DNA of 64,000 nucleotides from the NCBI GenBank assembly GCA_963827165.1, contig CAWGZR010000005.1, positions 672,001-736,000 of the forward strand, in the 5' to 3' direction. The first letter of the stretch is position 1, and the number at the start of each line of letters is the position of its first letter. Origin of the DNA: Candidatus Bathyarchaeota archaeon. Its GTDB lineage: Archaea > Thermoproteota > Bathyarchaeia > Bathyarchaeales > Bathycorpusculaceae. A program made the translations under genes and the position numbers. Below, piece by piece: positions 5,620 to 47,554 of the stretch. A model generated the notes under the pieces. The model saw nothing but the letters and a program-made list of their open reading frames with translations, did no database searches and had not been told where the DNA came from.

Positions 5620-6416
5620 TACTGATTCGAGCTCCAAACCAGAAACCAGCTAAAAGCAAAGAAATGCCTGGGCTAAAAAGTCGCAGATTATCATATGACC
5701 CTGCTTTTGGGGTTTTTTGGTCACGATATCTAACTTCTACATAAGTGGCGGTAATGGTCGCCTGTTGACTTTTGTTGACGTTAGTTGACTTTTATAGACT
5801 TTTGTAGACTATAGTTGACTTTAGTTGACTTTAGGAGACTTTAGTTGACGCAACCTGCAGGCGATTCAAGCTCAAAACTAAAAAAGCAGTCCAAAGCACA
5901 AAGGAAAAAAATTGCCGCGCCAAAAACCTGCTATCCGCTCCTTCTCCACAGTTTCTTCCAGCGATGTTTTGGGATGATTGTTGCAAGCGAATCAAGCTCC
6001 AAACCAAAAAATCGCAAACAGACAGCCCACCAACCACAATCCATAGACGTCTTTGCCATTGTTGACTGAAATTGCCTTTCTAAGATAATTTTAGAGAAAA
6101 ATAGAGATCTAAGGGATTCTGGGCGATTTTAAGAGATTTAGAGAGATTTTAAGACTCAACCTGCAGCTAATCCAAAGCCCTTTTCAAAAAACCAATCTAA
6201 AACAAAGAAAAAATCGTCCAGAAAATCCTCAGCTTGCCTTCTATGGCTTCTGTCTCGACATTTTCAAGCGATTATTTTAGCTTTTTTAGCTTAATCTAGC
6301 TTATTTTAGCTTATTATGGCTTAAAACAGCGCATTTTAGCTTGCGGTTGCGACCAAAACAATACCGATTTCAAAAAAACACTTCAAAACACAAACAAAAA
6401 ATTTGGGAGCGCAAAA
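5620..6416 (+). repeat. Array of non-coding modules: 10-bp tandem repeats plus conserved A-tract tail (locus 1)
   Basis: 9x TTAGTTGACT-like (5761-5850), about 7x AAGAGATTTT-like (6081-6152), 7x TTATTTTAGC-like (6272-6340), each followed by a related tail such as CAACCTGCAG..TCAAGCTC..AAAAAA..CAAA..AAAAAATT. Confidence 0.85.
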
Positions 6417-6494
6417 CTTCAATAACCCTGCGTATGCTTTAGCAGAAAGGTTATTACTTTTAGAGTTGCTTCAGTCGTAGCGGAGATATGTGAA

Positions 6495-7256
6495 GTGCCT
6501 CTTGTGTTTATGATTGGAACGGCTGGTTCTGGTAAGTCTTTGTTGACGGCGGCGTTTAGTGAGTGGCTCAAGATGTCTAAGCAGGATGTTGCGGTGGTTA
6601 ATTTGGATCCTGGAGTGCTAAAGCTTCCTTATAGTCCTGATGTTGATGTTCGCAACTATGTGGATGTCGGTGACATTATGGAGAAGTATGGGTTGGGTCC
6701 TAACGGCGCGTTGATTATGGCGGCTGATCTGATAGCCGATGAAATCGAAAACCTGAACCGCGACATTGAGGAGGCGCATGCTGACATCGTGTTGGTGGAT
6801 ACCCCTGGTCAAATGGAGCTCTTCGCTTTTAGGGCGAGTGGTCCATACATTGTTGATGAGTTAACGAGGGAACCTAAAGCGTTGATTTACCTCTTTGACG
6901 CTGTTTTCTCGATTAACCCGATGAATTACGTTTCAAACATGTTTCTCTCCGCCGCAGTTTACAACCGCTTCTTCCATCCGCAGCTGCATGTTCTCTCAAA
7001 AACCGATTTGCTTCCTAAGAAGGATGTGCAATCGATCGCTTCTTGGTCAGCTAATCCAAGGGCGCTTGAGGATGCGATTGAAGAAAAACTTCAAGGGACA
7101 AAACGCCTCTTTAGTCGTAACATGATGCAGGCGATTAACCGGCTGGGCTTGACTTTTCTGCTTATGCCTGTTTCTGCAAAAACCAACGAGGGCATGACAA
7201 ACATCAACACTACGCTTGAGCGAATACTCAACCAAGGAGAAAAATACACTACTTAA
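6495..7256 (+). CDS. GPN-loop GTPase
   Basis: GTAGSGKS, NLDPG, GLGPNGAL, DTPGQMELF motifs. Confidence 0.93.
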   Translation: MPLVFMIGTAGSGKSLLTAAFSEWLKMSKQDVAVVNLDPGVLKLPYSPDVDVRNYVDVGDIMEKYGLGPNGALIMAADLIADEIENLNRDIEEAHADIVLVDTPGQMELFAFRASGPYIVDELTREPKALIYLFDAVFSINPMNYVSNMFLSAAVYNRFFHPQLHVLSKTDLLPKKDVQSIASWSANPRALEDAIEEKLQGTKRLFSRNMMQAINRLGLTFLLMPVSAKTNEGMTNINTTLERILNQGEKYTT

Positions 7257-7257
7257 T

Positions 7258-7893
7258 TCATGGGGGAAGAAGGGTCCAGCTTGCCGCGAAGGCTCCTCGT
7301 TTAGCTCGAAGAGCTGAGTCGGCGCCTGCGATGATTACGACGTCGTTGTCTTCGGGCTCTAGCTGCCCAAGAATTTGGGTTGCTGCTTTTGGGTAATCTT
7401 TCTCTATGCAGTCGCTCACGGATTGAATGTGGAGATGGCCGTCTTTGAAAACAGTGACTAACGCTTTTTTTGCTCCACCTATAATGGCCGCGTCTCTTTG
7501 GTCGATTCCAGACTTAACCTTGTTTCCGCTGTTTTTAACTAAGAACGCAAAATTGAATTCGGCTTGGCTTAGTTCAGATTTAGTGATTTCCACACGTTTT
7601 GGGAAAAACTCTTCGAATTGGCACCATGTCTCTGCGCCCTTCTTTGTTAAGATGCACCCTTCCTTGGAGGTTTCAATTAATTCGGCGTTTCGAAGTCTGC
7701 TTATTATTGTACGCACTGCTCCGTCGCCGACACAAAGCTTCTTCGCCAATGTGTTTCTTCCCAGAGGCTTTTGAGACATTAGCTCAAGAGCGTAGAAAAT
7801 GTGGAAGACGGTGAAGGTTGTTGATGGTCCCGGAGCTTTTTTCCCCGCGATTTCTTGAATGAACTGTTTTAGGGATTCAGCCATTTTTTGCAC
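7258..7893 (-). CDS. Archaeal wHTH protein (DUF4443-like)
   Basis: PLGRNTLAKKLCVGDGAVRTIISRL HTH and SGIDQRDAAIIGGA motif. Confidence 0.75.
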   Translation of the reverse strand: MQKMAESLKQFIQEIAGKKAPGPSTTFTVFHIFYALELMSQKPLGRNTLAKKLCVGDGAVRTIISRLRNAELIETSKEGCILTKKGAETWCQFEEFFPKRVEITKSELSQAEFNFAFLVKNSGNKVKSGIDQRDAAIIGGAKKALVTVFKDGHLHIQSVSDCIEKDYPKAATQILGQLEPEDNDVVIIAGADSALRAKRGAFAASWTLLPP

Positions 7894-7946
7894 TGCTTTA
7901 ACATAGAGTAGCCTAGGCTTTATAATTTGTCAAAGGCGCAGACCTG

Positions 7947-8324: not shown

Positions 8325-8486
8325 CTTATCCCTCTTCATGTTGAGGGTCCTGGCGCTAAAAATGTTTTTTGCTGAACAAACATCAGCATTTTCGTTTTTT
8401 CGGTTGCTCGTTTGTAGAAAGATTTTTAAGAAAAACGGCAAGTATCTTATGTTCCATAACAACAACTTGGATGGAAACAGATTCTT

Positions 8487-9665
8487 ATGAGAATAAACGG
8501 AAAATATGTATTCACTTCTGAGTCAGTTGGCGAAGGACACCCCGACAAAGTTGCAGATCAAATATCTGACAGCGTGCTCGACGCAATATTCACCAATGAT
8601 CCCAAGGCAAGAGTCGACTGCGAAACCCTCGTTATGCAGGGAACCGTAATGATTACAGGCCAAATCACCACTTGCACCTATGTTGATATACCAAAAATTG
8701 TCCGCCAAACCCTCAAAGAAATCGGCTTCGACAACGCCAAAGACGGCTTAGACTGGGAAACCTGCGGCATCTTAGTTTCATTGACCGCACAATCTCCCGA
8801 CATCGCCATGGGCGTAAACGAATCTAAAGGTCACGAACAAGGCGCCGGCGACCAAGGCATGGTTTTCGGCTACGCAACAAACGAGACAAAAGAGCTTATG
8901 CCGCTGCCTATTATGCTGGCGCACAAACTCGTAAAAAGGTTAGCGGAATGCAGAAAAACAAAGCTTATTCCCTGCCTGCGTCCTGACTGCAAGTCCCAAG
9001 TTACAGTGGAATACGTGAATGGCAAGCCAAAATGCGTGAAAACCGTAGTCATCGCCGCACAAAACAATGGCGGACTCGAAGATGCAGCCCTCAAAAAAGA
9101 AATCATAGAGAAAGTTATCAAAAACGTCATTCCCGAAAACATGCTGGCTGAAGACGCAAACTACGTTATCAACGGCACGGGCAGATTCGTCATCGGCGGA
9201 ACATTGGCTGATTCAGGTTTAACTGGAAGAAAAATCATCGTCGACACATACGGAGGTGTTGGAAGCCACGGCGGCGGATGCTTCAGCGGCAAAGACCCCT
9301 CAAAAGTTGATCGTTCAGGCTGCTACATGGCAAGGTACATAGCCAAAAACATTGTTGCTGCAGGGTTGGCTGACCAATGCGAAATCCAAATTTCCTACGC
9401 CATCGGTGTTGCCCAACCAATCTCGGTGCTTGTAAACACATATGAAACTGGGAAGCTTCCTGACTCAAAGATTCTTGAGTTAGTGAATAAACACTTTGAT
9501 ATGAGACCCAAAGCGATCATCGACCAACTGGATCTTCTAAGACCAATCTACAAGAAAACTGCTTGTTTTGGGCACTTCGGAAGAGAAGAATCAGACTTTT
9601 CGTGGGAGAAAACCGATAAAGTCGACCTTCTCAAAGCGGAACTGGGAAACGCTAAAAAAGCGTAA
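8487..9665 (+). CDS. metK: S-adenosylmethionine synthetase, bacterial/eukaryotic type
   Basis: FTSESVGEGHPDK, GAGDQG, GRKIIVDTYGG, GGGCFSGKDPSKVDRS, GHFGR. Confidence 0.96.
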   Translation: MRINGKYVFTSESVGEGHPDKVADQISDSVLDAIFTNDPKARVDCETLVMQGTVMITGQITTCTYVDIPKIVRQTLKEIGFDNAKDGLDWETCGILVSLTAQSPDIAMGVNESKGHEQGAGDQGMVFGYATNETKELMPLPIMLAHKLVKRLAECRKTKLIPCLRPDCKSQVTVEYVNGKPKCVKTVVIAAQNNGGLEDAALKKEIIEKVIKNVIPENMLAEDANYVINGTGRFVIGGTLADSGLTGRKIIVDTYGGVGSHGGGCFSGKDPSKVDRSGCYMARYIAKNIVAAGLADQCEIQISYAIGVAQPISVLVNTYETGKLPDSKILELVNKHFDMRPKAIIDQLDLLRPIYKKTACFGHFGREESDFSWEKTDKVDLLKAELGNAKKA

Positions 9666-9686
9666 TCCCGACGCCCACTTTTTACC

Positions 9687-11602: not shown

Positions 11603-11760
11603 TCATCTCAACTCTTTTTTCATTTTAAAAGAATAACTGAAGTATGAATTAGGTCTGCGATTCAACTTTATCTGAAGTCTGCATTTTTTCTCCTTTCGGA
11701 AGTTTCTTCTGAACGCTGCCTTCGCCTTAACAGTCTATTGAAAATCTCCTTTTCTTTAAA

Positions 11761-12113
11761 TATTGTCAATTTGCGTCAAATTACATCATTTTGTGTCAAT
11801 TCACGTCAAATTGTCTCAAATAAATCCAACCCACAGCTGATTTTCAAGCTTCCGAAAAAAAACAATTCAAAAAACAGAGGAAAAAAATTTTTGCGCCAAA
11901 AAACTCGAAATTACTGCTCACAAACCTGTGTTCTCATTCTACGATCTTTTTAATCCATTTGGGATGTTTTTAGATGTTTCTAGAGGTTTCTAGATCTTTC
12001 TAGAGGTTTCTAGATCTTTTTAGATGTTTTTAGAGAACTGTTGCAATCAATTTAAGCTCTATTTCAAAAAAACAACCCATTTCACAAACAAAAAAATTTA
12101 GATAAAAAAAATT
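11761..12113 (+). repeat. 10-bp-periodic repeat modules with A-tract tails (locus 2)
   Basis: 6x TTGYGTCAAW-like (11761-11820) plus tail CAACCCACAGCTGATTTTCAAGCT..., then about 8x TAGATGTTTC-like (11961-12036) plus tail GTTGCAATCAATTTAAGCTC...CACAAACAAAAAAATTT. Confidence 0.85.
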
Positions 12114-28320: not shown

Positions 28321-28328
28321 CTGGCTTC

Positions 28329-30743
28329 TTGATGGGTAAATTGTCAAGAGAGAGACAGCTTGAAGTTGCCTTCATAACGATATTCTCTGTGCTGGTTTTA
28401 CTTATCTTCTACACAGTTGTTTCCATGAACGGTGTGGTGCTTGGAAATGATCCAGCTGTTCACTTGGTTAAAGCACAAATCTTCCTACAAACGGGTAAAA
28501 TACCCTTAGAAAACTTGGGTTGGACGCCCCCTCTTTACGAGCTTTTGCTTTCGATGCTTATTTCTTTCAGCGGCGCAACTGGCATTGGGCAGATGATTTT
28601 TTTAGTGAAAGCTCTCGCCGCAGTGGTTGATTGGCTGCTTTTTATGGCTGTTTATTTAATGGCTAGCAAGTTTTTTGGTAAGAAAGTTGGTGCTGTAAGT
28701 GCTGTTTTGTTGCTGATGTGTTTTCCTGTGTTTGAGGCTAACCAGTTTGGCGGCTACACCACGGTGCTTGGCATAGCGTTCATTCTTTTTGTGCTTCTAT
28801 ATTTGACAAAGGCGGTAGGGGAGTTTGGCTACTTGGTGGTTACTTTTCTTGCTGCTTTTGCTCTTGTTTTGTCTCATCAGCTCGCCGCTTTTCTTGCGGC
28901 TTTTATGCTGCCTCCGATTCTGATTTACATGGTAATAAAGTCTAGAGGTGCTTCCCTCAAAGTTGTGTTAGCCTTGATTGTGGGAGGCGGAATAGCCTTT
29001 CTGTATTATTTCAAAGCCATGTTCGGCTACATTGGGCTTGTTATTGAATACGTGTTTTTTGCGGTGAAAACTTACGCTTTCCAAATTCCTTCCGTCAGCT
29101 TTCACGCGTTCATTGTCAATTTCGGCTTCATTTTCTTTCTTGCTTTAGGCGGTATAGGCATTTCGTACTTTGTCCTAAGAAAAGAGAAAAAGGGTTTCTC
29201 ATACGCAATATTGATGATAAGTTTCCTTGTTCCCCTATTCTTCGCGGAGTCTTATCTTTTTGGTTTCTTCATGCCTTTCCAATGGTTCATCTATTATTTG
29301 ACGCCTGCAATGGCGATCTTCGCTGGAGTTTCTGTGGTGTTTCTTCAAGAGAATTTTCTTTTGTTTTACCTGAAGAAAAGAATGAACGCGCCGATTCGTC
29401 TTGGTCCTCTTGAATCAAATACGACGGGAATTAACGGCAATAAAAAGGCCAACAAAGGCTTTTCAGCCAAGTTTGTGAAGGCTTTTAGACAACGCTTGCT
29501 TGGTCCATTTCGCAGGAACTGGTTAAAGATACTTACCGCTTCCTTAATCGTGCTGGTGTGCCTGGTGCTTGTTTTTCGTTCTGATGTTGTCTACGGTAAA
29601 ATGTTGGAGGCCAGCGTTTTTTACTCCACAACCGACGTGAAAGCACTTGACGCAGGCATTTGGCTTCAACAAAACTATCCAAATAACGTTACAGTTGTGG
29701 ACACTGACGTGCCCGGTTTTTGGTTTTCAGCGTTTTCCGGCAAGAACGTTATTGCTCAAACTTCAGCAACAGTGGAGACAAATGATGTTGCGTCGTCAGT
29801 GCTGAGCCTATCATATGATATACAGGATCCTCAAAACCTATTTCGAGCTTACGAAGCATATGGGAACACTTTCTTGGAAACTTATATTTCAATCGATGGA
29901 GTTTGGGATCGAGTCATATCTTCTTCCACCTCGGGAGATTTTATCTCTTTCACTCAAAACGGCAAAAACTACGATTTTTCTTTTTCCAATTTAACAAGGG
30001 ACATTTACTTTGACCAGCAAATTAATCCTACGCAGTTAGCGATTCAGTTTTCCAACGAATATGTAATGTTAACTGAAACGATGATTGTTCAAAACTACAC
30101 TTACCCAGCCAACATTTCTTGGACTGTGACTCCACTAAACGGTGACATTTCAAACGTAACACTATACCTGACCAATTACTTTGATTTACATTTCGACAAA
30201 GCGCAAATCCCTCAAATCATGAATTGGGTTAACCCTTGGAATGTAACTTCGAATACAACTGACGGTAATCTTTGGGCTGTTGTTAATTTGCCAAATGCAA
30301 CATCTGACAGCTACGTTGGTGTTTATGATGACCAAGATCAAGTTGCTTGTGCATTCAACTTCACGGATCGACCCGACTGGGGAAACATTGGCGCATTGGG
30401 CAACGGACAAATCGACGCGATAAGATTTCAATATCAGTTTAGCGAAGTCAACAATGACCAGATGGTTCAGCGGCAGTACCAAATTCTCTGCCTTTCAAAG
30501 AGCAATTTTACTGCGTTGGAACCGACCAATCTTGAAAGCCTCCTGGACTTCAAATCTAACCCCTTCAATGTCTACACAAGAAGTTACAAAGATTACATAG
30601 CCCAGAATAACATTGATTTCATAGTTTACGACAAAAATCAACTAGACCCTAACATAATCCATTTGAAATTCCTGCAGCAAATCTACTCAAACAATCGATA
30701 TGTAATTTTCAAAATAATAAGCAACTACAACCAAACCCAATGA
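28329..30743 (+). CDS. Multi-TM GT-C-like membrane protein, paralog B
   Basis: Same architecture: GNDPAVH, WTPPLY, FGGY, SHQL, sequon-rich C-terminal domain. Confidence 0.65.
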   Translation: MMGKLSRERQLEVAFITIFSVLVLLIFYTVVSMNGVVLGNDPAVHLVKAQIFLQTGKIPLENLGWTPPLYELLLSMLISFSGATGIGQMIFLVKALAAVVDWLLFMAVYLMASKFFGKKVGAVSAVLLLMCFPVFEANQFGGYTTVLGIAFILFVLLYLTKAVGEFGYLVVTFLAAFALVLSHQLAAFLAAFMLPPILIYMVIKSRGASLKVVLALIVGGGIAFLYYFKAMFGYIGLVIEYVFFAVKTYAFQIPSVSFHAFIVNFGFIFFLALGGIGISYFVLRKEKKGFSYAILMISFLVPLFFAESYLFGFFMPFQWFIYYLTPAMAIFAGVSVVFLQENFLLFYLKKRMNAPIRLGPLESNTTGINGNKKANKGFSAKFVKAFRQRLLGPFRRNWLKILTASLIVLVCLVLVFRSDVVYGKMLEASVFYSTTDVKALDAGIWLQQNYPNNVTVVDTDVPGFWFSAFSGKNVIAQTSATVETNDVASSVLSLSYDIQDPQNLFRAYEAYGNTFLETYISIDGVWDRVISSSTSGDFISFTQNGKNYDFSFSNLTRDIYFDQQINPTQLAIQFSNEYVMLTETMIVQNYTYPANISWTVTPLNGDISNVTLYLTNYFDLHFDKAQIPQIMNWVNPWNVTSNTTDGNLWAVVNLPNATSDSYVGVYDDQDQVACAFNFTDRPDWGNIGALGNGQIDAIRFQYQFSEVNNDQMVQRQYQILCLSKSNFTALEPTNLESLLDFKSNPFNVYTRSYKDYIAQNNIDFIVYDKNQLDPNIIHLKFLQQIYSNNRYVIFKIISNYNQTQ

Positions 30744-30923
30744 CACAACCGTTTTAGCTTTGAGTACCATCAGCTTCTGGAGAATTGATTTCGATTTTCA
30801 CCGGATAGCAGTCAAAAAGAACTCTGTTCATAGGGAAGAAAGAATTGGCAGAAAAATTAATTGAAATTTATTGACATTTGTTGATGGATTTCAAGGAATA
30901 AAAAAGGAACTGAGGAAAAAAAT

Positions 30924-32021
30924 TTACTGCTTTTTAAAGTAGTTAGGGTCTTCGCGCAGAACTTTCGGTATGTAGTTACAGGCTGGGTCTGATTCGAATA
31001 GGTCGCCAGTGTAATATTCTGCTCTTGTCCTGCATCCACCGCAGATTTCTCGGTATTCGCAGACTCCGCATCTTCCTTTGATGTTGCTTTTGTCGCGTAG
31101 TTTGAGATGTAGTTCGCTTTTCTGCAGGTCATCCCAAACCTTGGTCAATTTCTTGTCTTTGACGTTGCCTAAACGGTAGCCTTCGTGGAATCCGCAACTT
31201 CGGTAATCGCCGTTTTCTGTTATGCCAACGTAGTTGCCTCCAATAGTGCATCTGCCAAGATAGCCTTCGTGGTACCAGTCCCAGAAGTCAACTGGGTTTT
31301 TCTGGCGAACGATTCTGGCGTAGAAAGGCGAGTAAACGTTGACTTTGACCTTGCCGTATAGTTTCCGCTGGATATCATAGATTTCGTCGAAAGCTTCCTC
31401 GTATTGTTCCGGTGTGGGCGCTAAGTCGGGCATATTGCTTCCTGCTCTGCCAACTGGAACGAGATTGTGGTAGACTACCATGCGGGCTTTGTATTCCTCT
31501 GCGAGTGCTGCAGGGTGCGCCATGTGTTTAATGTTGTATTTAGTCATGGTTGTGACTATGCAGTCGAGCAATCCGACCTCAGACAGTTTTTCCATTGCGT
31601 GCAATGCTTTATCATAGCTGCCTTTGCGTCGAATTATTTCGTTTGATTCCTTATTTCCATCTAGGCTAATCGCTGTGTGGACGTTGTATTTTCTTAGCTT
31701 GTCAAATCTTTCCTCATCCCACGCGAAACCGCTAGTTATTAGGCTAACTTTCATGTCGTATTTTTCTTCAGCATAAGCGATAATGTCAAAGATGTCTTTT
31801 CGAACCAATGGTTCTCCGCCGCTGATGCCAAACCACGGTGCCCCAAAATCGTGAATTTCGTCAACCATTTTTTTGGCGCCTTTAGTGTCAAGTTCAGTGT
31901 CAGCAGCATAGTCCTTAGTGTAGCTGCAGTACATGCAGTTGCCGACACAGTTCCTTGTACATCGCCAAACCACCATGAATAGTGGTGACTTATTTGAAGC
32001 CATCAAATCCCCAACAGTCAA
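30924..32021 (-). CDS. Radical SAM/SPASM enzyme A (AhbC/AhbD/NirJ/PqqE-like)
   Basis: CVGNCMYC, SGGEPL, VPVGRA, SPASM CTIG...C...CGVCEYREICGGCR...DPAC. Confidence 0.9.
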   Translation of the reverse strand: MTVGDLMASNKSPLFMVVWRCTRNCVGNCMYCSYTKDYAADTELDTKGAKKMVDEIHDFGAPWFGISGGEPLVRKDIFDIIAYAEEKYDMKVSLITSGFAWDEERFDKLRKYNVHTAISLDGNKESNEIIRRKGSYDKALHAMEKLSEVGLLDCIVTTMTKYNIKHMAHPAALAEEYKARMVVYHNLVPVGRAGSNMPDLAPTPEQYEEAFDEIYDIQRKLYGKVKVNVYSPFYARIVRQKNPVDFWDWYHEGYLGRCTIGGNYVGITENGDYRSCGFHEGYRLGNVKDKKLTKVWDDLQKSELHLKLRDKSNIKGRCGVCEYREICGGCRTRAEYYTGDLFESDPACNYIPKVLREDPNYFKKQ

Positions 32022-35311: not shown

Positions 35312-35762
35312 TTCCGGAAATTTTTTTGCTTTGTGTTTTAGATTGCTTTTTTGCATCAGGGTTTGAATCGTCTTCAGGTTGCGTCATAAAACGTCACGAA
35401 ACGTCAAATAACGTCATAAAAAGTCATGAAACGTCGCCAAACGTCATAAACCGTCACAAAACGTCACCAAAAGTCAACAAGCGACACCACCGTCACTTAA
35501 CATAAAAGACAAAGATCGTGGACAAAAGAAGCCCCAAAAGCATGGTCAGATGATGGTGTGGGGCTTTTCAGCCCATGTATTTCTTTGTTTCTTAGATTGG
35601 TTTTTTGAAAAGGGGTTTGGATTAGCTGCAGGTTGAGTCTTAAAATCTCTATTTTTCTCTAAAATTATCTTAGAAAGGCAATTGCAGTCAACAATGGCAA
35701 AAGACTCCTATAAGCCGTAGTTCGCGGGTTGCCTGTTTGCCATTTTTGGTTTGGAGCTTGAA
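35312..35762 (-). repeat. 10-bp-periodic repeat modules (locus 3), inverted relative to locus 1
   Basis: 10x ACGTCATAAA-like (35381-35480); reverse complement of 35581-35760 closely matches 5992-6212 and that of 35312-35590 matches 5655-5915. Confidence 0.9.
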
Positions 35763-35820
35763 AAACAATTTGATTGAAAGGAAATGAATGGCGGAAAAAC
35801 GGGTTTAGAAAAAATCAGGT

Positions 35821-37252: not shown

Positions 37253-38653
37253 TTATTTTTTGCTCATGGTTCGCATGATGATGTAATTTGCGGCGGTTCG
37301 AGCCATAATTTTGCTGTACACGCTGCCCCGCAGATACCCTTTTACGGCTTGGCGAAGGAAGTACTTGATTGAGTAGAACTTATTGTAGAAATCCTGCCTT
37401 TCTTTAAGCACTATTTCAGCGGGCAGATTAGGATCTTCAAAGATCGCGTTCATCGTGTTGTAACGGTTCCAGTCATTGGTCATCTTCCACCCATAGCTCT
37501 GAACCAAAGCCCGAAGCTCAGTTCCTGGGTAAGGTGTGGGAATATTTAGCCAAACGCTATCGGGTTCCACTCTTCGGACAAAATCAAGGCTTTCCGTAAG
37601 AGTTTCCCGTGTTTCACCTGGATAGCCCAGAATTATAGAGACGGTGGTAAATATTCCCGCTTCTTTAGACCATTTGATGGCGTTTTCGCACTGTTCAGTG
37701 GTGACTTTCTTCTTCAGGGAGTCGCGGATTCTTTGGCATCCTGATTCTACGCCGAAGCAGATTTCGTCGCAGCCGGCCTTATGCATCTTAGCGAGCAGCT
37801 CTTTTGTCGTTACGTCTGCCCGGGTTCCACAGCCCCATTTCAAATTTACCTTGCGCTCAATCATTCCATCGCAGATATCGATCGCTCTTTTCTTATCGAA
37901 GGAAAAAGTGTCATCTTGAAACTGAATTCCCTCTGCTCCATACTCGTTTTTGAGCCATCCAATTTCGTCAAGAACGTTGCCAGCGCTTCTTGCACGGAAT
38001 GTTCTGCCAAACATTTCGGACGCAACGCAAAAGCTGCATTGGAAGGGGCATCCCCTGCTTGAGATTATCGGCAATATCCTTTTTCCGTTGATTCGGTATT
38101 TTTCGATTGGAATCTGTTTGTAGTCTGGGCGTGGCAGCGCATCTAGGTTTTGGATGAACGGTCGGGTTGGCGCTTGCACGATTTGTTTGTCTTTTCGGTA
38201 AGTTATGCCTTTGATATTGTCTATGTTTTGTAGCTGGGGTTGCTTTGCGAGTTCCAGAAGGGTTTCTTCTCCTTCGCCTCTTACGATGACGTCAACTACG
38301 CTTTCTTGAGTAAGGATTTCTTTGTCTTGGAAGGTCGCGTGTGGTCCACCCATAACGATTTTAGCGTCAGGACAGGCTTCCTTTGCGGCGTAAGCGGTTT
38401 TGAGAGCTGACTCAAAAGTCTGCGTCATCGCGCCGACCCCGACTATGGTGGGTTGGTAAACGCTTAGTTCCTTTTTGAGGTTCTCATGGTCTATGCCGTA
38501 TATGGGGCAATCAAAGACTTTTACATCAAAATTGTTCTGCTCCAGCACAGCCGCCATATATGCCAAGCCAAGCGGTGCGAAAAGCGGGTGATCGCCTGCT
38601 CCTTCGAGGAGCGGTGTATTAACGAGCGCTATCTTGGGCTTGTTTGTTGTCAT
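37253..38653 (-). CDS. Cobalamin-binding radical SAM enzyme #2
   Basis: PLGLAY, GGPHAT, GEGE, SSRGCPFQCSFC, GVESG, PYPGT. Confidence 0.92.
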   Translation of the reverse strand: MTTNKPKIALVNTPLLEGAGDHPLFAPLGLAYMAAVLEQNNFDVKVFDCPIYGIDHENLKKELSVYQPTIVGVGAMTQTFESALKTAYAAKEACPDAKIVMGGPHATFQDKEILTQESVVDVIVRGEGEETLLELAKQPQLQNIDNIKGITYRKDKQIVQAPTRPFIQNLDALPRPDYKQIPIEKYRINGKRILPIISSRGCPFQCSFCVASEMFGRTFRARSAGNVLDEIGWLKNEYGAEGIQFQDDTFSFDKKRAIDICDGMIERKVNLKWGCGTRADVTTKELLAKMHKAGCDEICFGVESGCQRIRDSLKKKVTTEQCENAIKWSKEAGIFTTVSIILGYPGETRETLTESLDFVRRVEPDSVWLNIPTPYPGTELRALVQSYGWKMTNDWNRYNTMNAIFEDPNLPAEIVLKERQDFYNKFYSIKYFLRQAVKGYLRGSVYSKIMARTAANYIIMRTMSKK

Positions 38654-39638: not shown

Positions 39639-41885
39639 TCATCTAATTTTTCTTTTGAGTCGTCTTGCCGTCAAAAATACAACCAAAGCAGCGATTACCG
39701 CCAAAACCAAAAAAACAGCGATTTCGGAGACCGGTTCTGCCGTTGCGGGTTTTGCTGTTGATGCAGGTCCAAAAGCGTAGAGCATATTGTTGTATGAGCC
39801 CACGTATACGGCACTGTCGGCTGCGGCTGGTGAGGAGACAACCATTTCGCCTGTGGCGTAGCTCCAGATTTCTTTGCCGTTTTGTGCGTTGAGGGCATAG
39901 ACGTCGCCGTCGTAGGAGCCAACGTAAACAGCACCGCCTGAGACTGCAGGCGACGACGCTACTTGCCCGCCGGTCAGGAAGCTCCACGCGAGTTTGCCAT
40001 CCGACGCCTGCAAAGCGTAAACTTTCCCGTCTCCTGACCCCACATAAATCAGGCCGGCCGCCACGGCAGGGGACGAAGCAACCCCCGCATCCGTGGCGAA
40101 TTCCCAGACGAGTTTGCCGTCGGAGGCTCGCAGGGCATAGACGTTGTGGTCGTAAGAGCCAATGTACACGACGCCGTCTGCTACTGCGGGCGACGAAACC
40201 ACGTAGCCCCCTGTTGCGTAGTTCCAGATGATGGAACCGTCGGAGGCATTGAGGCAGTAGACGTTATTATCGTTTGAGCCGACATAGACTCTGCCGTCGT
40301 TGACTGCGGGTGAGGAAACCGTGATTTGACCGTTTGTAGTATAGTGCCATATGAGTGTGCCGTCCGATGCGTTTAAGGCGTATATGCTGCCGTCTTCTGA
40401 ACCCACATACATGACGCCACCCTGTACGGTGGGAGAAGAAACCACTGGGCCGCCTGTTTTGAAGCTCCAAACCTTGATGCCTGTGGCAGCATCGAGTGCG
40501 TAAACATTGCCGTCGTAAGAGCCCACATACACGATGCCATCCGCAACCGCAGGAGATGAAAACATCACCATGTCGCCCGTAGCGTAGCTCCACACCACGT
40601 TGTTATGCATTTCCACGTTGAATCCAACCATACCGGTCGAAGCGTTCAAAGCGTATACGACGCCATCATGCGAACCCACATAAACCAGCCCGTCTGCTAC
40701 TGTTGGAGAAGAGTCTATTTCACCCCCTGTTGCGTAGCTCCAAACGTAGCCGCCCGTCGTAGCATTCAATGTATATAGTTTCCCGTCCCAGCAGCCAACG
40801 TAAACCCTGCCGTCGGCCACTTCGGGACGCGAAATAACCATGTCACCCGTCACGTAGGTCCACAGCAAACTGCCGCCGGAGGCATCAAGCGCATATACTC
40901 TGCTGTTCTCCGATCCCACATAAACTGTGTCGCCCGCCACCGAAGGGGAAGAAGCTACAGCTGCACTTGTTGAGAAACTCCAAATTTTGGCGCCGGTTTC
41001 TGCGTTTAGGGCGTAGACCTTGTCGTCGGTTGACCCAATGTAGACAGTGCCTCCGCTGATACAGGGCGAAGAATAGATTGCTCCGCCCGTCGTGAAGTTC
41101 CAAATCTGTTTGCCAGAGGAGGCTTCCAAAGCGTAGATTTTTCCGTCGTCGGAACCAGCGTAGACCACGCCTGACTGTACCGCGGGTGAAGAAACCACTT
41201 GGCTGCCCGTTGAGTAGGTCCAGATGAGGGCTCCGTTAACGGCGTTGAGAGCGTAGATTTTGCCGTCTTCCGACCCGATGTACAAGGTTCCGTTGCTGAC
41301 CGCAGGCGACGACAACATGATTTTGTAGCCCGTGCTGAAGTTCCACGCCAACCTGCCTGTTTGGGCGTTTAGGGCGTAAACATTGTGGTCTTCCGAGCCG
41401 AAGTACACGTTTCCGTAGGCGACGGCTGGGTCACAGTCAACGTAGTTTCCTGTCGCGAAGTTCCAAAGTTTTGCGCCGTTGGTTGCGTTGAGTGCATAGA
41501 GGTTGTGGTCTTCGCTGCCAACATACACCCTGCCTTCTGAGACTGCGGGTTGGGAAATCACGATGCCGCCCGTCGTAGACGCCCAGATGACAGCGCCGCT
41601 TAGGGCATCGAATGCGTAGATGTTATGGTCAAAAGAACCTACGTACACGACGCCGCCGACTACAGTGGGTGAATCCATTTGGCCGCCCGTGTTGAACTTC
41701 CAAAGTGTCTGATTCGTCGCAGGCGCCGAAGAATCTCCACTGCCTGTGTGAGCGGGATTACCGTGAAACATGGGCCACCCAGCTGCACTGACTTGGCTCT
41801 GGGCTGCTCCCAAAATGGCTGCGGCTAAAAACAGCGTAGACAGAACAAAAACAAACGTGGCGGCTGCTTTCATTTCTGTTTCCAT
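39639..41885 (-). CDS. Surface protein with 16 PQQ-like repeats (probably two 8-bladed beta-propellers), signal peptide and C-terminal TM anchor
   Basis: WPMFHGNPAHTG then 16 SSP.V....VYVGS.D..VYALNA..G...W repeats; hydrophobic C-terminus with basic tail. Confidence 0.92.
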   Translation of the reverse strand: METEMKAAATFVFVLSTLFLAAAILGAAQSQVSAAGWPMFHGNPAHTGSGDSSAPATNQTLWKFNTGGQMDSPTVVGGVVYVGSFDHNIYAFDALSGAVIWASTTGGIVISQPAVSEGRVYVGSEDHNLYALNATNGAKLWNFATGNYVDCDPAVAYGNVYFGSEDHNVYALNAQTGRLAWNFSTGYKIMLSSPAVSNGTLYIGSEDGKIYALNAVNGALIWTYSTGSQVVSSPAVQSGVVYAGSDDGKIYALEASSGKQIWNFTTGGAIYSSPCISGGTVYIGSTDDKVYALNAETGAKIWSFSTSAAVASSPSVAGDTVYVGSENSRVYALDASGGSLLWTYVTGDMVISRPEVADGRVYVGCWDGKLYTLNATTGGYVWSYATGGEIDSSPTVADGLVYVGSHDGVVYALNASTGMVGFNVEMHNNVVWSYATGDMVMFSSPAVADGIVYVGSYDGNVYALDAATGIKVWSFKTGGPVVSSPTVQGGVMYVGSEDGSIYALNASDGTLIWHYTTNGQITVSSPAVNDGRVYVGSNDNNVYCLNASDGSIIWNYATGGYVVSSPAVADGVVYIGSYDHNVYALRASDGKLVWEFATDAGVASSPAVAAGLIYVGSGDGKVYALQASDGKLAWSFLTGGQVASSPAVSGGAVYVGSYDGDVYALNAQNGKEIWSYATGEMVVSSPAAADSAVYVGSYNNMLYAFGPASTAKPATAEPVSEIAVFLVLAVIAALVVFLTARRLKRKIR

Positions 41886-41942
41886 CTCACTCAGGTATTA
41901 AGGAATAAAGAGGTTTTCTCTTAAAACAGGGAAAAGGCAGGG

Positions 41943-43270: not shown

Positions 43271-45889
43271 ATTCACAAAAAAGTCTTAGTTCTTGCTATT
43301 TTATTTGTGCTTCTTACTTCATCAGTTTCCGCCTCAATTTCCGCCCTTCAAATGAACGCAAAGGCACAGGCGACAGGCACAACTTCTAACTTGAACCAGT
43401 ACGAATGGCCCCAATTTCAAGGAGACGAATCGTTCACCCGTTTCTCAGCAGGACCCGCCCCAAGCACATCTAACGTGCTTTGGAAAGCCACTATACCTGG
43501 TATACAACCGGACCTTACAGCCTTCGACGGCTTAATCTTCGTAGGCACAAACACATCCCTCGTAGCAGTAAACCAAGCCGGTCAAATAGCTTGGAGCACC
43601 CCTATTCCCTTGAATAAAACCTGGCCCATAGCCTACGAAATTGATTCTTCACATTTGGTTGCGGAGGGTAGCTGCCTTGATCCCTCCACTGGCAAAATCC
43701 TGTGGACAAGCACTTCGTTTTGCGCGGACACAGGAATCTTCACGTCCAACGTTTACAGCCCCGAAACAAAAATGTTTTATGTAAAAGATAATTCCTACAT
43801 TGTCGCATGGAACTTCGCCGACCCCTCAAAGCCGCCGACCGTTGCGTGGACAACTTACATTCCAGGCGGAGGCCAAGCAGGCATCGGAACAACCTATGGA
43901 GCCGGCATAGTCTTCGCAGGCTCCTTTGAAAACCAACAGCTGGCGCTTAACGCAACAACTGGCAAAATAATATGGGATACCCAAACGAAGGGACCCATGA
44001 TTTTTGACGGCGCCTACGCGGATGGCTTCTTCTTCAGAGGCGGAACAGACGACAACACAATGTATTGCTTTAACGCAGCCGACGGACAAATCGTGTGGAC
44101 CTACACTCCACCTTCTGACCCAAATGGGTACTTCACAACTGGACCCGCCATCGCTTACGGAACCGTTTATGAAATGAACAAAGACGGGTACCTCTACGCC
44201 CTGAACGAAAAGACTGGCGCTCTGCTTTGGAAATACAAGAGTCCGGACACCGATTTCATGTGGCCAGGAATGCCCACAGTGGCGGACGGCAAAATCTACC
44301 TCACTACCGGCCAACACGCAGCTTACAATGGTCCAGCACAGGTCTCCCAATTCGCGTGCTTGAACGCATACAACGGGCAAACCATCTGGACCCTTCCCAT
44401 TGAAGCGTTGGCTCCCAGGGAGTCGGCCATCGTTGCGTATGGAAACTTGTACATCATCCCCGGTGAAGTAACATCCGCCGTTGACACAACATCAGGAACA
44501 GAATACTCAACAAATAACGCGCTTTGGGCGATAGGCGGCGGAAGCTCAACTCCAGCGCCGACCCCGTCTGGCACCCAGGGATCTGCCCCAACACCCACGC
44601 CGGCGCCTTCGCTGACACCGATTTTGTCTTCGAGCCTCAGCAATTGGACTATGTTTCGCGCTGATCCAGCTCACTCATCAACAGCCGAAGTCGGCCCATC
44701 AAACCTTACTGAAGCTTGGAAATTCGCAACTGAGGGCTCAGTTGTCTCCTCGCCAACGGTCGTTGGCGGAGTGGTTTATGCCGGTTCACAGGACAAAAAC
44801 GTTTACGCAGTTGATGCATTGAGCGGCAAGCTTGTCTGGAAGTTTGCTACTAGCGGCTCGATTGAAGATTCGCCTGCCGTGGCAGCTGGATTACTATATA
44901 TTGAGAGCGACGACGGCTACGTTTACTGCCTTAACGCACAGAGCGGGGCACTCAATTGGCAGACCCCCGTTGGGAGCAATCTGCACTACACGTATGCGAA
45001 CCTGATGCTAACCTCTTCACCCGTTGTATCAGATGGCATGGTTTACATCGGCTCCTTAGACGGCAACCTATACGCCCTCAACGCGGAATCGGGCGCGATT
45101 GTTTGGAAAACTCCATCGGGCGGACCAATCGAGTGTTCACCAGCCTACTCTGACGGCGCCGTCTTCTTCACTTCCCAGCAGCCATCGACTGGCATGCTCT
45201 TCAAGCTTAACGCGGATACTGGACAGGTAATGTGGAACTTCACGATTCCTTATAATCACTCGTTTTTAGGCGGGACAGAGCTTCTTGGTTCCCCTTCCGT
45301 TGCAGCAGGGATGGTTTTTGCATCCTCAGACTGGGGAGCTTACTACGCAGTAAACGTTGAATCAGGCCAGATGGTGTGGGATTTCGTTAACCCCGCGGCT
45401 ACGGAATTCATTGTTTCCTCACCCATCTACGTTAATGGTGACCTCTACATCATCAACATATTCAATATTATGTGCCTCAACGCAGCGAATGGACAAATGG
45501 TCTGGACCGCCTACACAGGAGACGAACTCTACGTTTCGCCTTCCTATGCTGATGGCAAAATCTACGTTGCAACTAGCGAACGGCATATATTTGTTCTCGA
45601 CACCACGCAAGGCGGTAAGAAAATTGCGACTGGTACCACACCCTCCAGTAGCTGGTCTTCGCCAACGATAGCGGACGGCATGCTATACATCGGATGTAAC
45701 GACTGGAATATCTATTGTTTTTCAGAAGGCATCAGCACCCAAGGGTCAACCCCTGCCACAACAGACAACGTCGCGATGGGACACGACATAGTCATTGTAG
45801 TATTCGTAATCGCTGCCCTTGCAATTGCAGCAGCCTTCACAGTGAGCTATGTTAACAGAAAGAAAGTCAAAACGCCGTCGACAGCTTAG
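43271..45889 (+). CDS. Double PQQ-repeat beta-propeller surface protein with Pro/Thr linker and C-terminal TM anchor
   Basis: WPQFQGD and WTMFRAD start the two propellers; STPAPTPS linker; start probably ATT at 43271 (ORF track uses GTG at 43307). Confidence 0.88.
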   Translation: MHKKVLVLAILFVLLTSSVSASISALQMNAKAQATGTTSNLNQYEWPQFQGDESFTRFSAGPAPSTSNVLWKATIPGIQPDLTAFDGLIFVGTNTSLVAVNQAGQIAWSTPIPLNKTWPIAYEIDSSHLVAEGSCLDPSTGKILWTSTSFCADTGIFTSNVYSPETKMFYVKDNSYIVAWNFADPSKPPTVAWTTYIPGGGQAGIGTTYGAGIVFAGSFENQQLALNATTGKIIWDTQTKGPMIFDGAYADGFFFRGGTDDNTMYCFNAADGQIVWTYTPPSDPNGYFTTGPAIAYGTVYEMNKDGYLYALNEKTGALLWKYKSPDTDFMWPGMPTVADGKIYLTTGQHAAYNGPAQVSQFACLNAYNGQTIWTLPIEALAPRESAIVAYGNLYIIPGEVTSAVDTTSGTEYSTNNALWAIGGGSSTPAPTPSGTQGSAPTPTPAPSLTPILSSSLSNWTMFRADPAHSSTAEVGPSNLTEAWKFATEGSVVSSPTVVGGVVYAGSQDKNVYAVDALSGKLVWKFATSGSIEDSPAVAAGLLYIESDDGYVYCLNAQSGALNWQTPVGSNLHYTYANLMLTSSPVVSDGMVYIGSLDGNLYALNAESGAIVWKTPSGGPIECSPAYSDGAVFFTSQQPSTGMLFKLNADTGQVMWNFTIPYNHSFLGGTELLGSPSVAAGMVFASSDWGAYYAVNVESGQMVWDFVNPAATEFIVSSPIYVNGDLYIINIFNIMCLNAANGQMVWTAYTGDELYVSPSYADGKIYVATSERHIFVLDTTQGGKKIATGTTPSSSWSSPTIADGMLYIGCNDWNIYCFSEGISTQGSTPATTDNVAMGHDIVIVVFVIAALAIAAAFTVSYVNRKKVKTPSTA

Positions 45890-45904
45890 TGGGCGCCTCA
45901 GACT

Positions 45905-47371
45905 TTAGTCTTGGTCTTTGCTTGGTGTGCTGTGTCCGCCTGGGCTTTTCTTTACAGGTCTAACCTTGCCCATCTGTCTAAACGCCCATCTCGATGCGCG
46001 ATACTTCCAGACGAGGTGGTTGAGAGCCATGCGTGCCATGATTTGGCTGTGGAAATCTCCCCGTTGCCTCATCCGTAAGTAATAGGTTGGTGTGAAGATC
46101 CTGTCATAGACTGATTTTTTGGTTTGCTCCAACTTCTCAAGAGGCAAAAGCGCATTTTTGAAAACCTGCATCTGCTCATGATAAAGGTTCCAGTTCTCCG
46201 AAAGCTCCAACCCCAACTCTTTAACCTGATCATAAAGTAGTGTGCCAGGGTAAGGAACCGCCTCACACATGTAAACGTAATCAGGCTTGGTTTTGCGAAT
46301 GAAATCCGCTGTTTGCTTCAGCATCTCCGGTGTTTCGCCTGGGTACCCAATGACGAGCGATATGGCGACGAGGATGTCTGATTCCTTCGCTAACTTGATG
46401 GCATTAGCGTTCTGCTCAACTGTGGTGCCTTTCCGCATGGTGTTTAGCATCTGTTGGCTGCCTGATTCGACGCCGAAATGGATGAGTTGGCAGTTTGTGC
46501 TCCTGAGCTTGTCCAAAAGAGCCTTAGAGACTTTGTCTACCCGCGTTCGGCAGTCCCACGGCATGTCAAATCCCCGTATCTTCATTTCGTCGCAGATGGC
46601 GATTGCCCTTGGTACATCAGAAGTGAACGTGTCGTCGTAAAACGCGAAAGCTCCTGCCCCAAAAGTGTCCCGTAGCCACTCAAGCTCGTCCACCACCTTA
46701 TGTGGGTTGCGTGCCCTAAACCCTTTGCCGCACATCTTGGATGCGAGGCAGAAGGCGCAGTTGAAGGGGCATCCGCGGCTGGTTATGATGGGCATGTAGA
46801 GTTTGCCATTAATACGATAGCGACTAACGTCAAAGTGCTTGTGAGCTGGGTAGGGAAGGGTGTCTATGTCTTCGAGGAAGGGCCGGTCAGCAGTGCGGAT
46901 GACTTGCCCGTCTCGCTTATAGGTGATGCCTAAAACCTTGCCCAGAGCTTTGAGGTTGTCTTCGGACACGAGGCGTGCGAGTTCGAGCATGGTTTGTTCT
47001 CCTTCGCCGCGCACGACGATGTCGACGTCTTGGCTATCCATGAAGGTGCGTTCATCCAAAACGGTGACGTGGGGTCCGCCAATCATGGTTACGCAGTTTG
47101 GCAGGGCTGCTTTGGCTGCTTTTAGTACTTGAAGCGCAGGGAAGTAAGTGACGGTTGCCGCGGTTGCGCCGACGATGTCGGCTTTAAGGCTTCTGAACTT
47201 GTCTTCCAGGTCCTTCTGGCTGAGTTTGGCGATTTGGCAGTCAACCACGTCCACTTGGTACCCATCTCGTTCAAGCACTGCGACAAGGTAGCTGATGCCA
47301 AGAGGTATGAAAACGGCTTGCGGTACATCCTCAGGATAAGGTGGATTAGCAAGTACTACGTGAGCCTTCAC
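45905..47371 (-). CDS. Cobalamin-binding radical SAM enzyme #3
   Basis: PLGISY, GGPHVT, TSRGCPFNCAFC, GVESGS, PYPGT. Confidence 0.92.
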   Translation of the reverse strand: MKAHVVLANPPYPEDVPQAVFIPLGISYLVAVLERDGYQVDVVDCQIAKLSQKDLEDKFRSLKADIVGATAATVTYFPALQVLKAAKAALPNCVTMIGGPHVTVLDERTFMDSQDVDIVVRGEGEQTMLELARLVSEDNLKALGKVLGITYKRDGQVIRTADRPFLEDIDTLPYPAHKHFDVSRYRINGKLYMPIITSRGCPFNCAFCLASKMCGKGFRARNPHKVVDELEWLRDTFGAGAFAFYDDTFTSDVPRAIAICDEMKIRGFDMPWDCRTRVDKVSKALLDKLRSTNCQLIHFGVESGSQQMLNTMRKGTTVEQNANAIKLAKESDILVAISLVIGYPGETPEMLKQTADFIRKTKPDYVYMCEAVPYPGTLLYDQVKELGLELSENWNLYHEQMQVFKNALLPLEKLEQTKKSVYDRIFTPTYYLRMRQRGDFHSQIMARMALNHLVWKYRASRWAFRQMGKVRPVKKSPGGHSTPSKDQD

Positions 47372-47490
47372 GCTATGTCCCCGACTTAGAAACTAAAATC
47401 GTCTACCCAATCTATTATGTGTTATGCAAATAAGCTGAGCTGCCGATTAACGTTACAGGTTGATGTTTTCTTGAGGTTTTCATGGCAGGA

Positions 47491-47554
47491 GATTTTAGTT
47501 TTTTGTGATTTGGGTTGCTTGGGTTTTTTTGAGCTTGAAAAATCTGCAAGTCAA
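47491..47554 (-). repeat. Isolated tail of the dispersed module family (locus 4)
   Basis: Reverse complement TTGCAGATTTTTCAAGCTCAAAAAAACCCAAGCAACCCAAATCACAAAAAACTAAAATC resembles the tails at loci 1-3. Confidence 0.5.

Follow-up and report, generated by a model that had tools for sequence, protein, structure and literature searches.

The window analysed here comprises 64,000 nucleotides of contig CAWGZR010000005.1 from a Candidatus Bathyarchaeota archaeon (assembly GCA_963827165.1, positions 672,001 to 736,000 of the forward strand) and is ordinary chromosomal DNA with a GC content of 45.7%. Several of its intergenic regions contain non-coding modules in which a run of 10-base repeats is joined to a conserved A-rich tail. 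These modules raise the question whether they belong to one family and, if so, how such an element might act. An initial annotation, made from the sequence letters, had counted at least eight modules at four loci and had considered chromatin positioning, in-phase protein loading and a non-autonomous mobile element as explanations. The analysis described below provides good support for a genuine, lineage-specific family dispersed in the intergenic DNA of Bathyarchaeia, which is old and at least partly constrained, and tentatively favours the loading of proteins on duplex DNA as its role.

A family of decamer arrays joined to an A-rich tail

Related modules were found at all four loci listed in the initial annotation; the count was 11 related tails and 7 period-10 arrays, to which two weak relics are added. 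Using Tandem Repeats Finder (TRF), arrays were detected at every place where a 10-bp period had been claimed, namely at 5764-5849 (8.6 copies), 6125-6154, 6287-6324 (also reported as 6272-6342 with period 20/30), 11765-11821 (period 20), 11963-12034 (7.2 copies) and 35382-35476 (9.5 copies), and in addition at 30854-30884, which had been overlooked. Six period-10 arrays with at least three copies were counted in the window versus a total of one across 30 dinucleotide-preserving shuffles. The 11 tails were alignable, in line with the earlier claim that they are related, and a profile hidden Markov model (HMM) built from them matched exactly those 11 (nhmmer E 1.7e-15 to 2.5e-4), with all subsequent matches at E >1. 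Comparison of the window with itself by BLAST identified locus 3 as a rearranged inverted paralogue of locus 1 (35315-35603 versus 5917-5643, 72% identity over 290 bp, E 9e-42; 35559-35761 versus 6231-5992, 72% over 243 bp, E 3e-35), and the tails of loci 2 and 4 matched the first complete tail of locus 1, T1, with E-values of 4.5e-6 and 2.4e-4, respectively.

The initial annotation had proposed to follow the tail through related genomes by means of a profile. A 34-letter pattern that covers the tail only, and that fits 4 of the 11 window tails, was scanned against 596 Gb of species-representative genomes and gave nine loci, eight of them in six Bathyarchaeota/Bathyarchaeia assemblies and one in a betaproteobacterium; the source genome of the window was not among the nine matches. 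As about 0.3 chance matches were expected for this pattern by our own estimate, the lone bacterial match is unremarkable, and with neither an array nor an HMM match it looks like a chance event. At all eight archaeal loci (designated L001, L002 and so on where they have to be told apart), a period-10 array of 4-10 units abutted the junction with the tail, though the pattern held no array sequence. When an HMM was built from the eight foreign tails only, the 11 window tails were its top 11 matches (E 1.5e-11 to 0.19), including the seven that miss the search pattern. At L009, a second period-10 array of the GGGGAGATTT type (approximately 2673-2716 in locus coordinates) was observed directly upstream of the module with TTGAC-type units; it has its own TTGTTGACT box ahead of it and no tail. 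Arrays can therefore stack without a tail between them.

The view that no named element fits was borne out by all searches. Rfam 15 gave no match in the window at gathering score (best sub-threshold E-values 1.4-2.3), an 841-bp module query gave no match in plasmid and phage collections in 'distant' mode, the insertion sequence and miniature inverted-repeat transposable element (MITE) ends carried there included, and no description of such an element was found in the literature as judged by titles and the openings of abstracts. Apparently, this element family has so far not been described.

Read on the strand with the A-rich tail, a full module consists of a pyrimidine-rich leader with CTTCT-like words (identified by eye), often a TTGTTGACT box, 5-10 contiguous decamers, a junction that reads CAACCTGCAG or a GTTGCAA variant of it, and a tail of approximately 65 bp. 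Modules occur singly or head-to-tail in clusters, the latter being co-oriented. Locus 1 lies on the plus strand and begins with the relic tail T0 (5612-5679; nhmmer and alignment), which has no array and an end like that of the M3/M8-type tail. It is followed by module M1, composed of a leader (5690-5760) that is paralogous to 35482-35560 by alignment and in which an inverted-repeat search revealed an inverted tail-like stretch at 5701-5721, an array of nine units with the consensus TTAGTTGACT (5761-5850; TRF and register analysis), and tail T1 (5851-5925), where the CAACCTGCAG junction passes into an A/C-rich tail with the best scores of all (nhmmer E 1.7e-15; foreign-only HMM E 1.5e-11). Module M2 is represented by tail T2 of the GTTGCAA subtype (5978-6046; nhmmer), with just array remnants upstream. 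In M3, the TTGTTGACT box (6059-6067) is located 98 bp upstream of the junction, the array (6097-6156; TRF and register analysis) has six units with the consensus TTTTAAGAGA, the final one ending in GACT, and tail T3 covers 6157-6223 (nhmmer). M4 completes the cluster with seven units, one of them of 9 bp, with the consensus TTTAGCTTAT (6272-6342; TRF) and tail T4 of the GGTTGCGA subtype (6343-6417; nhmmer).

Locus 2, also on the plus strand, holds two modules. The M5 array (11757-11826; TRF) has seven units with a GTCA core, equivalent to TGAC on the other strand, and leads into tail T5 (11827-11901; nhmmer, and the BLAST match to T1 mentioned above). The M6 array (11957-12036; TRF) has eight units with the consensus TTTAGATGTT, in which the palindrome TCTAGA recurs every 10 bp, and is followed by tail T6 (12038-12101; nhmmer). 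At locus 3, all elements are on the minus strand. Tail T7 (35314-35381; BLAST and nhmmer) is a T1 paralogue with 78% identity, the M7 array (35382-35481; TRF and register analysis) has ten units with the minus-strand consensus TTTTGTGACG, and the M7 leader (35482-35560) aligns with that of M1. Next to it, tail T8 (35566-35635; nhmmer) is a T3 paralogue with 81% identity; the short M8 array with its TTGTTGACT box (35686-35694, 59 bp from the junction) extends over 35636-35694 and is by alignment approximately 40 bp, or about four units, shorter than that of M3. The relic tail T9 (35707-35765), a T2 paralogue, marks the lower end of both HMM rankings (nhmmer E 2.5e-4; foreign-only HMM E 0.19). 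Locus 4 consists of the solitary tail T10 on the minus strand (47479-47553; nhmmer), upstream of which just two GAC-type unit remnants were found. The two weak relics lie on the plus strand: a degenerate, array-less tail at 55362-55417, which is the first match of the foreign-only HMM past the 11 tails (E 0.76), and a possible weak copy at 30854-30930 with three decamers detected by TRF and then a tail-like A-rich stretch, which has no HMM support.

The arrays and most tails are poorer in GC (0.26-0.40 and 0.23-0.46, respectively) than the window (0.457). The pooled composition of the tails was A 0.52, C 0.23, G 0.10 and T 0.15, so that A exceeds T 3.4-fold and C exceeds G 2.4-fold on one strand. 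A run of six A is the tail's most conserved feature and forms invariant columns. Beyond the stretch prescribed by the search pattern, the foreign tails share recurrent words such as TCAAG and CAACCC, and conservation of the tail thus extends beyond A-richness.

Decamer register and a proposed in-phase loading of proteins

For register analysis, each array was cut into 10-mers counted back from the junction. The decamers turned out to be homologous and in one register to the CAACCTGCAG junction, with T and A prevailing at the start of the unit and a core of 3-4 bp conserved at positions 7-9. The unit next to the junction ended in GAC(G/T), GTCT or GTAT in 11 of 13 junction-anchored arrays, those with GAGA-type interiors included. 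Edge units thus kept the ancestral GAC form and interiors were homogenised, as is commonly seen when a tandem array evolves in concert. The initial annotation had held that the geometry rather than the sequence of the decamers is conserved. This argument is weakened, because decamers that are homologous and in register can inherit a constant 10-bp period.

The variation within arrays was position-specific. With M8 (the M3 paralogue) and L005 (the L002 orthologue) dropped and the M5 register shifted by 2 to match L002, the mismatch of units to their own array consensus was 8-12% at positions 7-9 versus 26-37% at positions 3-5 (chi-square p=2e-4, 13 arrays, 97 units), and the same was found for interior units alone. 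Among approximately 100 units, the 9-bp unit of M4 was the only one with a length other than 10 bp. Across the arrays, the core types TGAC, GAGA, TCTAGA, AGCT and ACCC were distinguished. TGAC is on the tail strand in M1, M7, L006 and L009 and, in nearly the same register, on the opposite strand as GTCA in M5, L001, L002/L005 and L008; its orientation is uniform within each array, giving four arrays with the tail-strand form versus four independent arrays with the opposite one. A superperiod of 30 bp, as expected for a histone-dimer footprint, was not robust, as the TRF score for period 30 exceeded that for period 10 in just two of the five arrays that list both.

The distance from the TTGTTGACT box to the junction was 59 bp in M8, 89 bp in M1 and L006, 98 bp in M3, and 99 bp in M7 and L007. 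Only M3, M8 and L007 are informative in this respect, and two of the three are in register. A phase kept across a spacer that is no longer repeat-like, as appears to be the case in L007 and M8, is suggestive at best.

Two assemblies share an orthologous locus, L002 in one and L005 in the other, with flanking genes of 95-98% DNA identity. Their arrays were 92.9% and their tails 96% identical, compared with 81% and 83% for the intergenic DNA on either side. After removal of the 34 positions fixed by the search pattern, approximately 8 of 111 positions in the element were mismatched versus approximately 42 of 234 in the flanks (Fisher p=0.008). Both arrays had the same seven units without an indel, and the adjacent leader was gapped.

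We favour, at a probability of roughly 0.35 and by analogy, the view that the modules are DNA-level, in-phase protein-loading arrays anchored by the conserved junction and tail, because the arrays are built like iteron arrays that bind proteins. The module would act as double-stranded DNA; a sequence-specific protein would recognise the junction and the tail, and the array would present one short core box per helical turn with A/T-rich spacers between. Protein dimers might then load cooperatively along one face of the helix to give a nucleoprotein complex of 50-100 bp, like those that form when ribbon-helix-helix proteins bind to centromere and operator arrays of plasmids, and such a complex could mark boundaries or locally organise the chromosome. 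In-phase loading was among the proposals of the initial annotation, and the features that speak for it are the conserved core next to a variable spacer, the occurrence of TGAC on either strand, the nearly fixed 10-bp length and the conservation of L002/L005. TGAC on either strand and the palindromic TCTAGA are what a duplex-binding protein tolerates and a sequence-specific RNA would not; judged by these core sequences, the action looks double-stranded rather than RNA-based. The several core types imply several paralogous binders or a readout that is partly shape-based. A more specific form of the same idea, in which the modules are chromosome-wide iteron- or centromere-like loading sites and the tail nucleates a protein or paralogues that polymerise in helical phase over the array, appears rather doubtful by comparison.

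Related arrays are found in R1 parC, in pSK41 parC and, as omega-protein heptads, in pSM19035. Among documented systems, parH/OF of plasmid TP228 comes closest; there, arrays of approximately 100 bp, in which degenerate tetramer boxes with AT-rich spacers are placed as direct and inverted copies, are cooperatively coated by dimers of the ribbon-helix-helix protein ParG (PMC3130281). Common to both are AT-rich non-coding arrays of approximately 50-100 bp with five to twelve contiguous short units, each with a degenerate core of 3-4 bp and an A/T-rich spacer, and boxes in either orientation. The period is 10 bp in the modules and 8 bp in parH, and the 65-bp A/C-rich tail to which the module array is joined has no counterpart in parH as described there (PMC3130281). 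Unlike parH, the modules sit on the chromosome at many loci and in several species, have several core types and are not located beside parA-like or ribbon-helix-helix genes.

A number of points weigh against protein loading. The core differs between arrays, so that one protein cannot read all of them. A period explicable by common descent is by itself no evidence for selection on geometry, and the position-specific variation could partly result from the differing mutability of T-runs and G/C positions. The estimate of constraint is derived from one orthologous pair. The relic and array-less copies (T0, T2, T9, T10 and 55362-55417) indicate that copies decay and that many are not maintained. 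The skew of the tail towards A and C over G and T is not required for duplex recognition; it is the one feature still suggestive of a role as single strand or as RNA, or it may reflect mutational bias. Finally, no recurring partition or candidate regulator gene was found by Pfam among the neighbours of the window and foreign loci, and no binder was identified: a ParA-like or ribbon-helix-helix gene is beside none of the modules, and the 58 window open reading frames (ORFs) scanned with Pfam contained no partition ATPase domain.

Copy dynamics and possible roles in chromatin, termination and transcripts

The history of the copies bears on the alternative that the modules are a selfish or neutral interspersed repeat (MITE/BOX/BIME-like) with no host function, which would have spread by transposition or segmental duplication and whose inner minisatellite would evolve via slippage and concerted evolution. 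We regard this as a serious possibility, nearly as likely as protein loading. In its favour, the modules are found in unrelated intergenic regions of every type without an orientation rule. With L002/L005 taken as one, there are seven foreign loci besides the four of the window; of these 11 independent loci, six have the tail facing a gene start and five a gene end, and the leader faces the end of a co-oriented gene in eight and a gene start in three (binomial test, not significant). The neighbours share no functional theme, 9 of the 14 foreign neighbour ORFs having Pfam support. The modules are AT-rich and cluster head-to-tail, the M1 leader contains an inverted tail-like fragment, and relic copies exist. 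The homogenised interiors next to ancestral edge units, typical of concerted evolution, and the difference of about four whole units between M3 and M8 fit this reading as well. With the strict pattern, four copies were counted in the 64-kb window versus one or two per assembly in the six other assemblies, a comparison that is biased because the search pattern was derived from this window.

Segmental copying has evidently shaped the loci. The module order at locus 3, M2 tail-M3-M1, is permuted relative to that at locus 1, M0 tail-M1-M2-M3-M4, in which the M0 tail resembles the M3-type tail; this implies that a tandem repeat of higher order was ancestral and was later copied in segments, as a selfish repeat might show. 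The sequence identities, in turn, do not indicate recent activity. Window tails were 31-81% identical to each other, and their best matches to foreign tails were 53-75% identical; being no closer to each other than to foreign ones, they look like an old family kept near its consensus rather than a recent burst, which is a further sign of constraint.

A mobile origin, as considered in the initial annotation, is weakened since all testable hallmarks of MITEs failed except AT-richness. No consistent terminal inverted repeat was found in eight regions, only low-complexity T-run/A-run and copy-specific pairs; no base-paired structure was predicted (RNAalifold on 18 tails; fold z-scores of eight modules); near-identical copies were absent, the closest pair of tails in the window being 81% identical; and neither the scanned window ORFs nor the plasmid and phage collections provided a transposase, an integrase or a match, respectively. 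The orthologous copy at L002/L005 is more conserved than its flanks with an equal unit count, and the within-array variation is position-specific, which also argues against a merely neutral repeat.

MITEs, as characterised in PMC3049150, are likewise small, AT-rich, non-coding, intergenic and multi-copy with relics, and they differ from the modules in having terminal inverted repeats, base-paired structure, near-identical copies and a partner transposase, for which there was no candidate among the 58 window ORFs. The same source describes the BOX elements of Streptococcus pneumoniae as composite interspersed intergenic repeats with end modules around variable tandem internal units, which are clustered, vary in unit number and proliferated in the past with little recent activity (PMC3049150), all of which applies to the modules. 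BOX units are tens of bp long, and the elements end in inverted repeats, have target duplications and give an RNA with a strongly base-paired fold; the mosaic elements BIME and NIME are named there as related kinds (PMC3049150). In contrast, the module units are of 10 bp, inverted ends and a fold were not found, and the host belongs to another domain of life; BOX and modules were compared by description only.

The 10-bp period of A/T dinucleotides suggests, as a further alternative, chromatin elements acting via archaeal histones: either the arrays position histone oligomers, or arrays and A-rich tails exclude them and thereby create boundaries or histone-free regions. A/T dinucleotides made up 0.35-0.60 of the array dinucleotides, all arrays had period 10 or its multiples 20/30, and over 50-100 bp this corresponds to approximately 1 to 1.5 archaeal nucleosome footprints of 60 bp. 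The histone-favouring code named in the initial annotation is therefore matched in its A/T half. Its other half is missing: GG/GC/CG/CC dinucleotides, which the code needs at an offset of 5 bp, accounted for only 0.04-0.14 of array dinucleotides versus 0.216 in the window, and G/C-only pentamers occurred in just one of seven arrays. A/T-only pentamers reached at least the window average in six of the seven arrays, which counts against positioning of histones. They are enriched in most arrays and tails, and since archaeal nucleosomes exclude A/T-only pentamers according to PMC3691661, depletion of histones would be predicted. In 6 of the 11 loci, a gene start lies 80-260 bp downstream of the tail, which is compatible with such depletion.

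The tails do not follow the helical repeat. Their A-runs stand at fixed positions 30, 43, 55 and approximately 70 from the junction, and the autocorrelation of AA had peaks at lags 12-13 and 25 and was negative at lags 9-10. With a spacing of 12-13.5 bp, the runs are regular but not at helical phase, and the earlier description of the A-tracts as phased had to be given up. Relative to the nucleosome-positioning rules set out in PMC3691661, the modules share the 10-bp A/T dinucleotide period over approximately 60-100 bp and the adjoining poly(dA:dT)-like runs, and they deviate in lacking the G/C dinucleotide phase, in their frequent A/T-only pentamers and in the 12-13.5-bp spacing of the tail runs. 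Simple exclusion does not account for the conservation, across genomes, of tail positions other than A (CAACCTGCAG, TCAAG and CAACCC), nor for that of the array cores, and no histone-fold match was obtained among the 58 window ORFs. Altogether, we consider a histone-based role improbable.

The runs of the tail have a second implication. In most of 17 tails, A-runs of at least four bases at positions 30, 43 and 55 are T-runs on the other strand, so that a transcript would contain three to four U-runs within approximately 45 nt, and most arrays in reverse would give U3-6 every 10 nt. The modules might thus be bidirectional terminators or insulators at which archaeal RNA polymerase together with aCPSF1 would stop transcription entering from either side. 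In Methanococcus maripaludis, at least two U4 tracts confer the highest termination efficiency and the strongest aCPSF1 binding (PMC8716108). In 5 of the 11 independent loci, a gene encoded on the T-rich strand of the tail has its 3' end ahead of the tail, and a location that is independent of orientation suits an insulator; the invariance of the A6 run also speaks for this reading. Termination is nevertheless about as improbable as the histone-based role. The two genes inspected have their own T-runs (after 11602 and after 35120) right behind the stop codon and ahead of the module, the array strand of GTCA-type arrays is rich in A, clusters of several modules over 800 bp are longer than termination calls for, and T-runs alone leave the conserved junction, the cores and the exact 10-bp period unexplained. 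Compared with aCPSF1 U-tract terminators (PMC8716108), several T4+ runs within approximately 30-45 nt on one tail strand and on the other strand of most arrays are a shared trait. A conserved junction or an exact decamer array is not known from terminators. The modules also lie beyond the genes' own T-runs and are oriented at random to the neighbouring genes.

A non-coding RNA would account for the strong strand asymmetry of the tail and the fixed polarity of whole modules. The transcript would be unstructured and G-poor, with U-rich repeats followed by an A/C-rich tail, and might serve as a protein sponge or landing pad. Clusters are co-oriented, and in about half of the modules TATA-like words similar to host promoter words were seen by eye 10-30 bp upstream of the array. 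A promoter motif at a fixed position was not found, and TGAC cores in both orientations relative to the tail would change the RNA sequence. There was no Rfam family at gathering score, RNAalifold predicted 0 pairs on either strand for 18 tails, and the fold z-scores of eight modules ranged from -2.41 to +1.42, seven of them being above -1.4 and the single value below -2 being caused by the TCTAGA palindromes. On balance, an RNA is slightly less probable still than a terminator. Where a gene start lies downstream of a module, the gene's own TATA-like word is located downstream of the tail.

Least likely of all, and in our estimation very improbable, is a small lysine-rich peptide encoded by the tail and starting in the last decamer. 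The frame CAA-CCT-GCA is open over 14-79 codons in 12 of 12 tails and would give similar products of the form QPAxD(S/P)SSxxKKQxK; four of the 12 have an ATG, and two a TTG, two codons upstream. An open frame is expected, however, because the DNA has 15% T, and six of the 12 tails lack any start codon (ATG, GTG or TTG) from the preceding stop codon up to the junction. All three substitutions between the L002 and L005 tails change the amino acid (by eye), a periodicity of three bases is absent from the column entropy (1.00, 0.87 and 1.00 at the three codon positions), and a protein search with a 74-aa ORF, restricted to lengths of 40-130 aa, gave one candidate and none at E<=0.01.

Further candidates were rejected. 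A hairpin or cruciform of T-rich array and A-rich tail would use complementarities of 12-20 nt that occur in single copies and are not kept in paralogues. For restriction-site avoidance or decoys, CTGCAG, GTTGAC and related words should be depleted outside the modules; they are not, occurring at approximately twice the expectation. At a replication origin, a turn of the GC skew would be expected, and none was found at any locus, nor was an Orc1/Cdc6 domain among the 58 window ORFs. The T6-G-AAA word of the tail is, by eye, unlike host promoter words, which disfavours a promoter within the tail. A link to tRNA genes or integration sites was dismissed as no tRNA is present in the window or the eight foreign loci. 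At L004, a sequence similar to a tRNA 3' half, with a T-arm-like part and then CCA (approximately 2665-2730, minus strand), was observed about 130 bp upstream of the array; ARAGORN found no tRNA in it, there was no tRNA-family match, and Rfam gave only a chance PreQ1 hit (E 0.41).

Genes of the window and meaning of the family

The genes of the window identified by Pfam include those for PstB, a GPN-loop GTPase, MetK, a member of the acetate-channel family, acetyl-CoA synthetase and MtrH with a corrinoid protein. Upstream of locus 1, the region 1900-5500 is composed of small ORFs and long spacers. It contains an intact MNT/HepT toxin-antitoxin pair (nucleotidyltransferase and HEPN-type RNase; 3434-4086, 4-bp overlap) and, at 2694-3433, 740 bp with only two short ORFs (65 and 67 aa) and no Pfam or module match. 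A MazE/AbrB-type antitoxin gene (4872-5135) is located approximately 480 bp upstream of locus 1, and nothing similar was found at the other loci. It is followed by a PIN-domain toxin in two frames (5168-5347 and 5328-5483) with a PIN_3 match only in the second piece; the PIN toxin gene directly upstream of locus 1 is thus probably frameshifted. Between loci 1 and 2, the S-adenosylmethionine synthetase (8487-9665) matched all three S-AdoMet_synt Pfam domains, which we take to denote the MetK-type enzyme typical of bacteria and eukaryotes and not the separate archaeal-type one.

Seven paralogous genes for B12-binding radical SAM proteins were found at 22748-24133, 37253-38653, 45905-47371, 49979-51427, 52577-53986, 59260-60636 and 61634-63118, with 55-64% DNA identity by self-BLAST, and the same window has two radical SAM/SPASM genes and the cobamide-salvage genes CbiZ and CobD/CbiB. 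Two large PQQ-like beta-propeller proteins are encoded at 39639-41885 and 43307-45889, the former gene having strong internal DNA repeats with a period of approximately 120-240 bp (many self-BLAST matches). Two adjacent large ORFs (769 and 804 aa) at 26011-30743 had no Pfam match; the 804-aa product resembles Bathyarchaeota clusters auto-named glycosyltransferase family 39 (Atlas feature score 0.99). At 54061-55083, a 340-aa protein with two tandem Lrp/AsnC-type helix-turn-helix units is encoded, and its gene adjoins the intergenic region with the relic tail at 55362-55417.

Bathyarchaeia are abundant archaea. A description of their non-coding DNA was not found, and no genetic system for them came up in this work. 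The family is a conserved, easily recognised cis-element with a defined junction, a tail and a phase-exact array, and it provides a practical starting point in the search for the lineage's DNA-binding or chromatin proteins. Should it be only a selfish repeat, it would still represent a mosaic repeat type without the testable hallmarks of MITEs and a marker for genome comparison and strain typing. The family also allows a test of whether iteron-like arrays are used on archaeal chromosomes. If the modules are chromosome-wide loading sites, they would be fixed nucleoprotein landmarks that organise, insulate or segregate the chromosome, for which there is no described archaeal counterpart.

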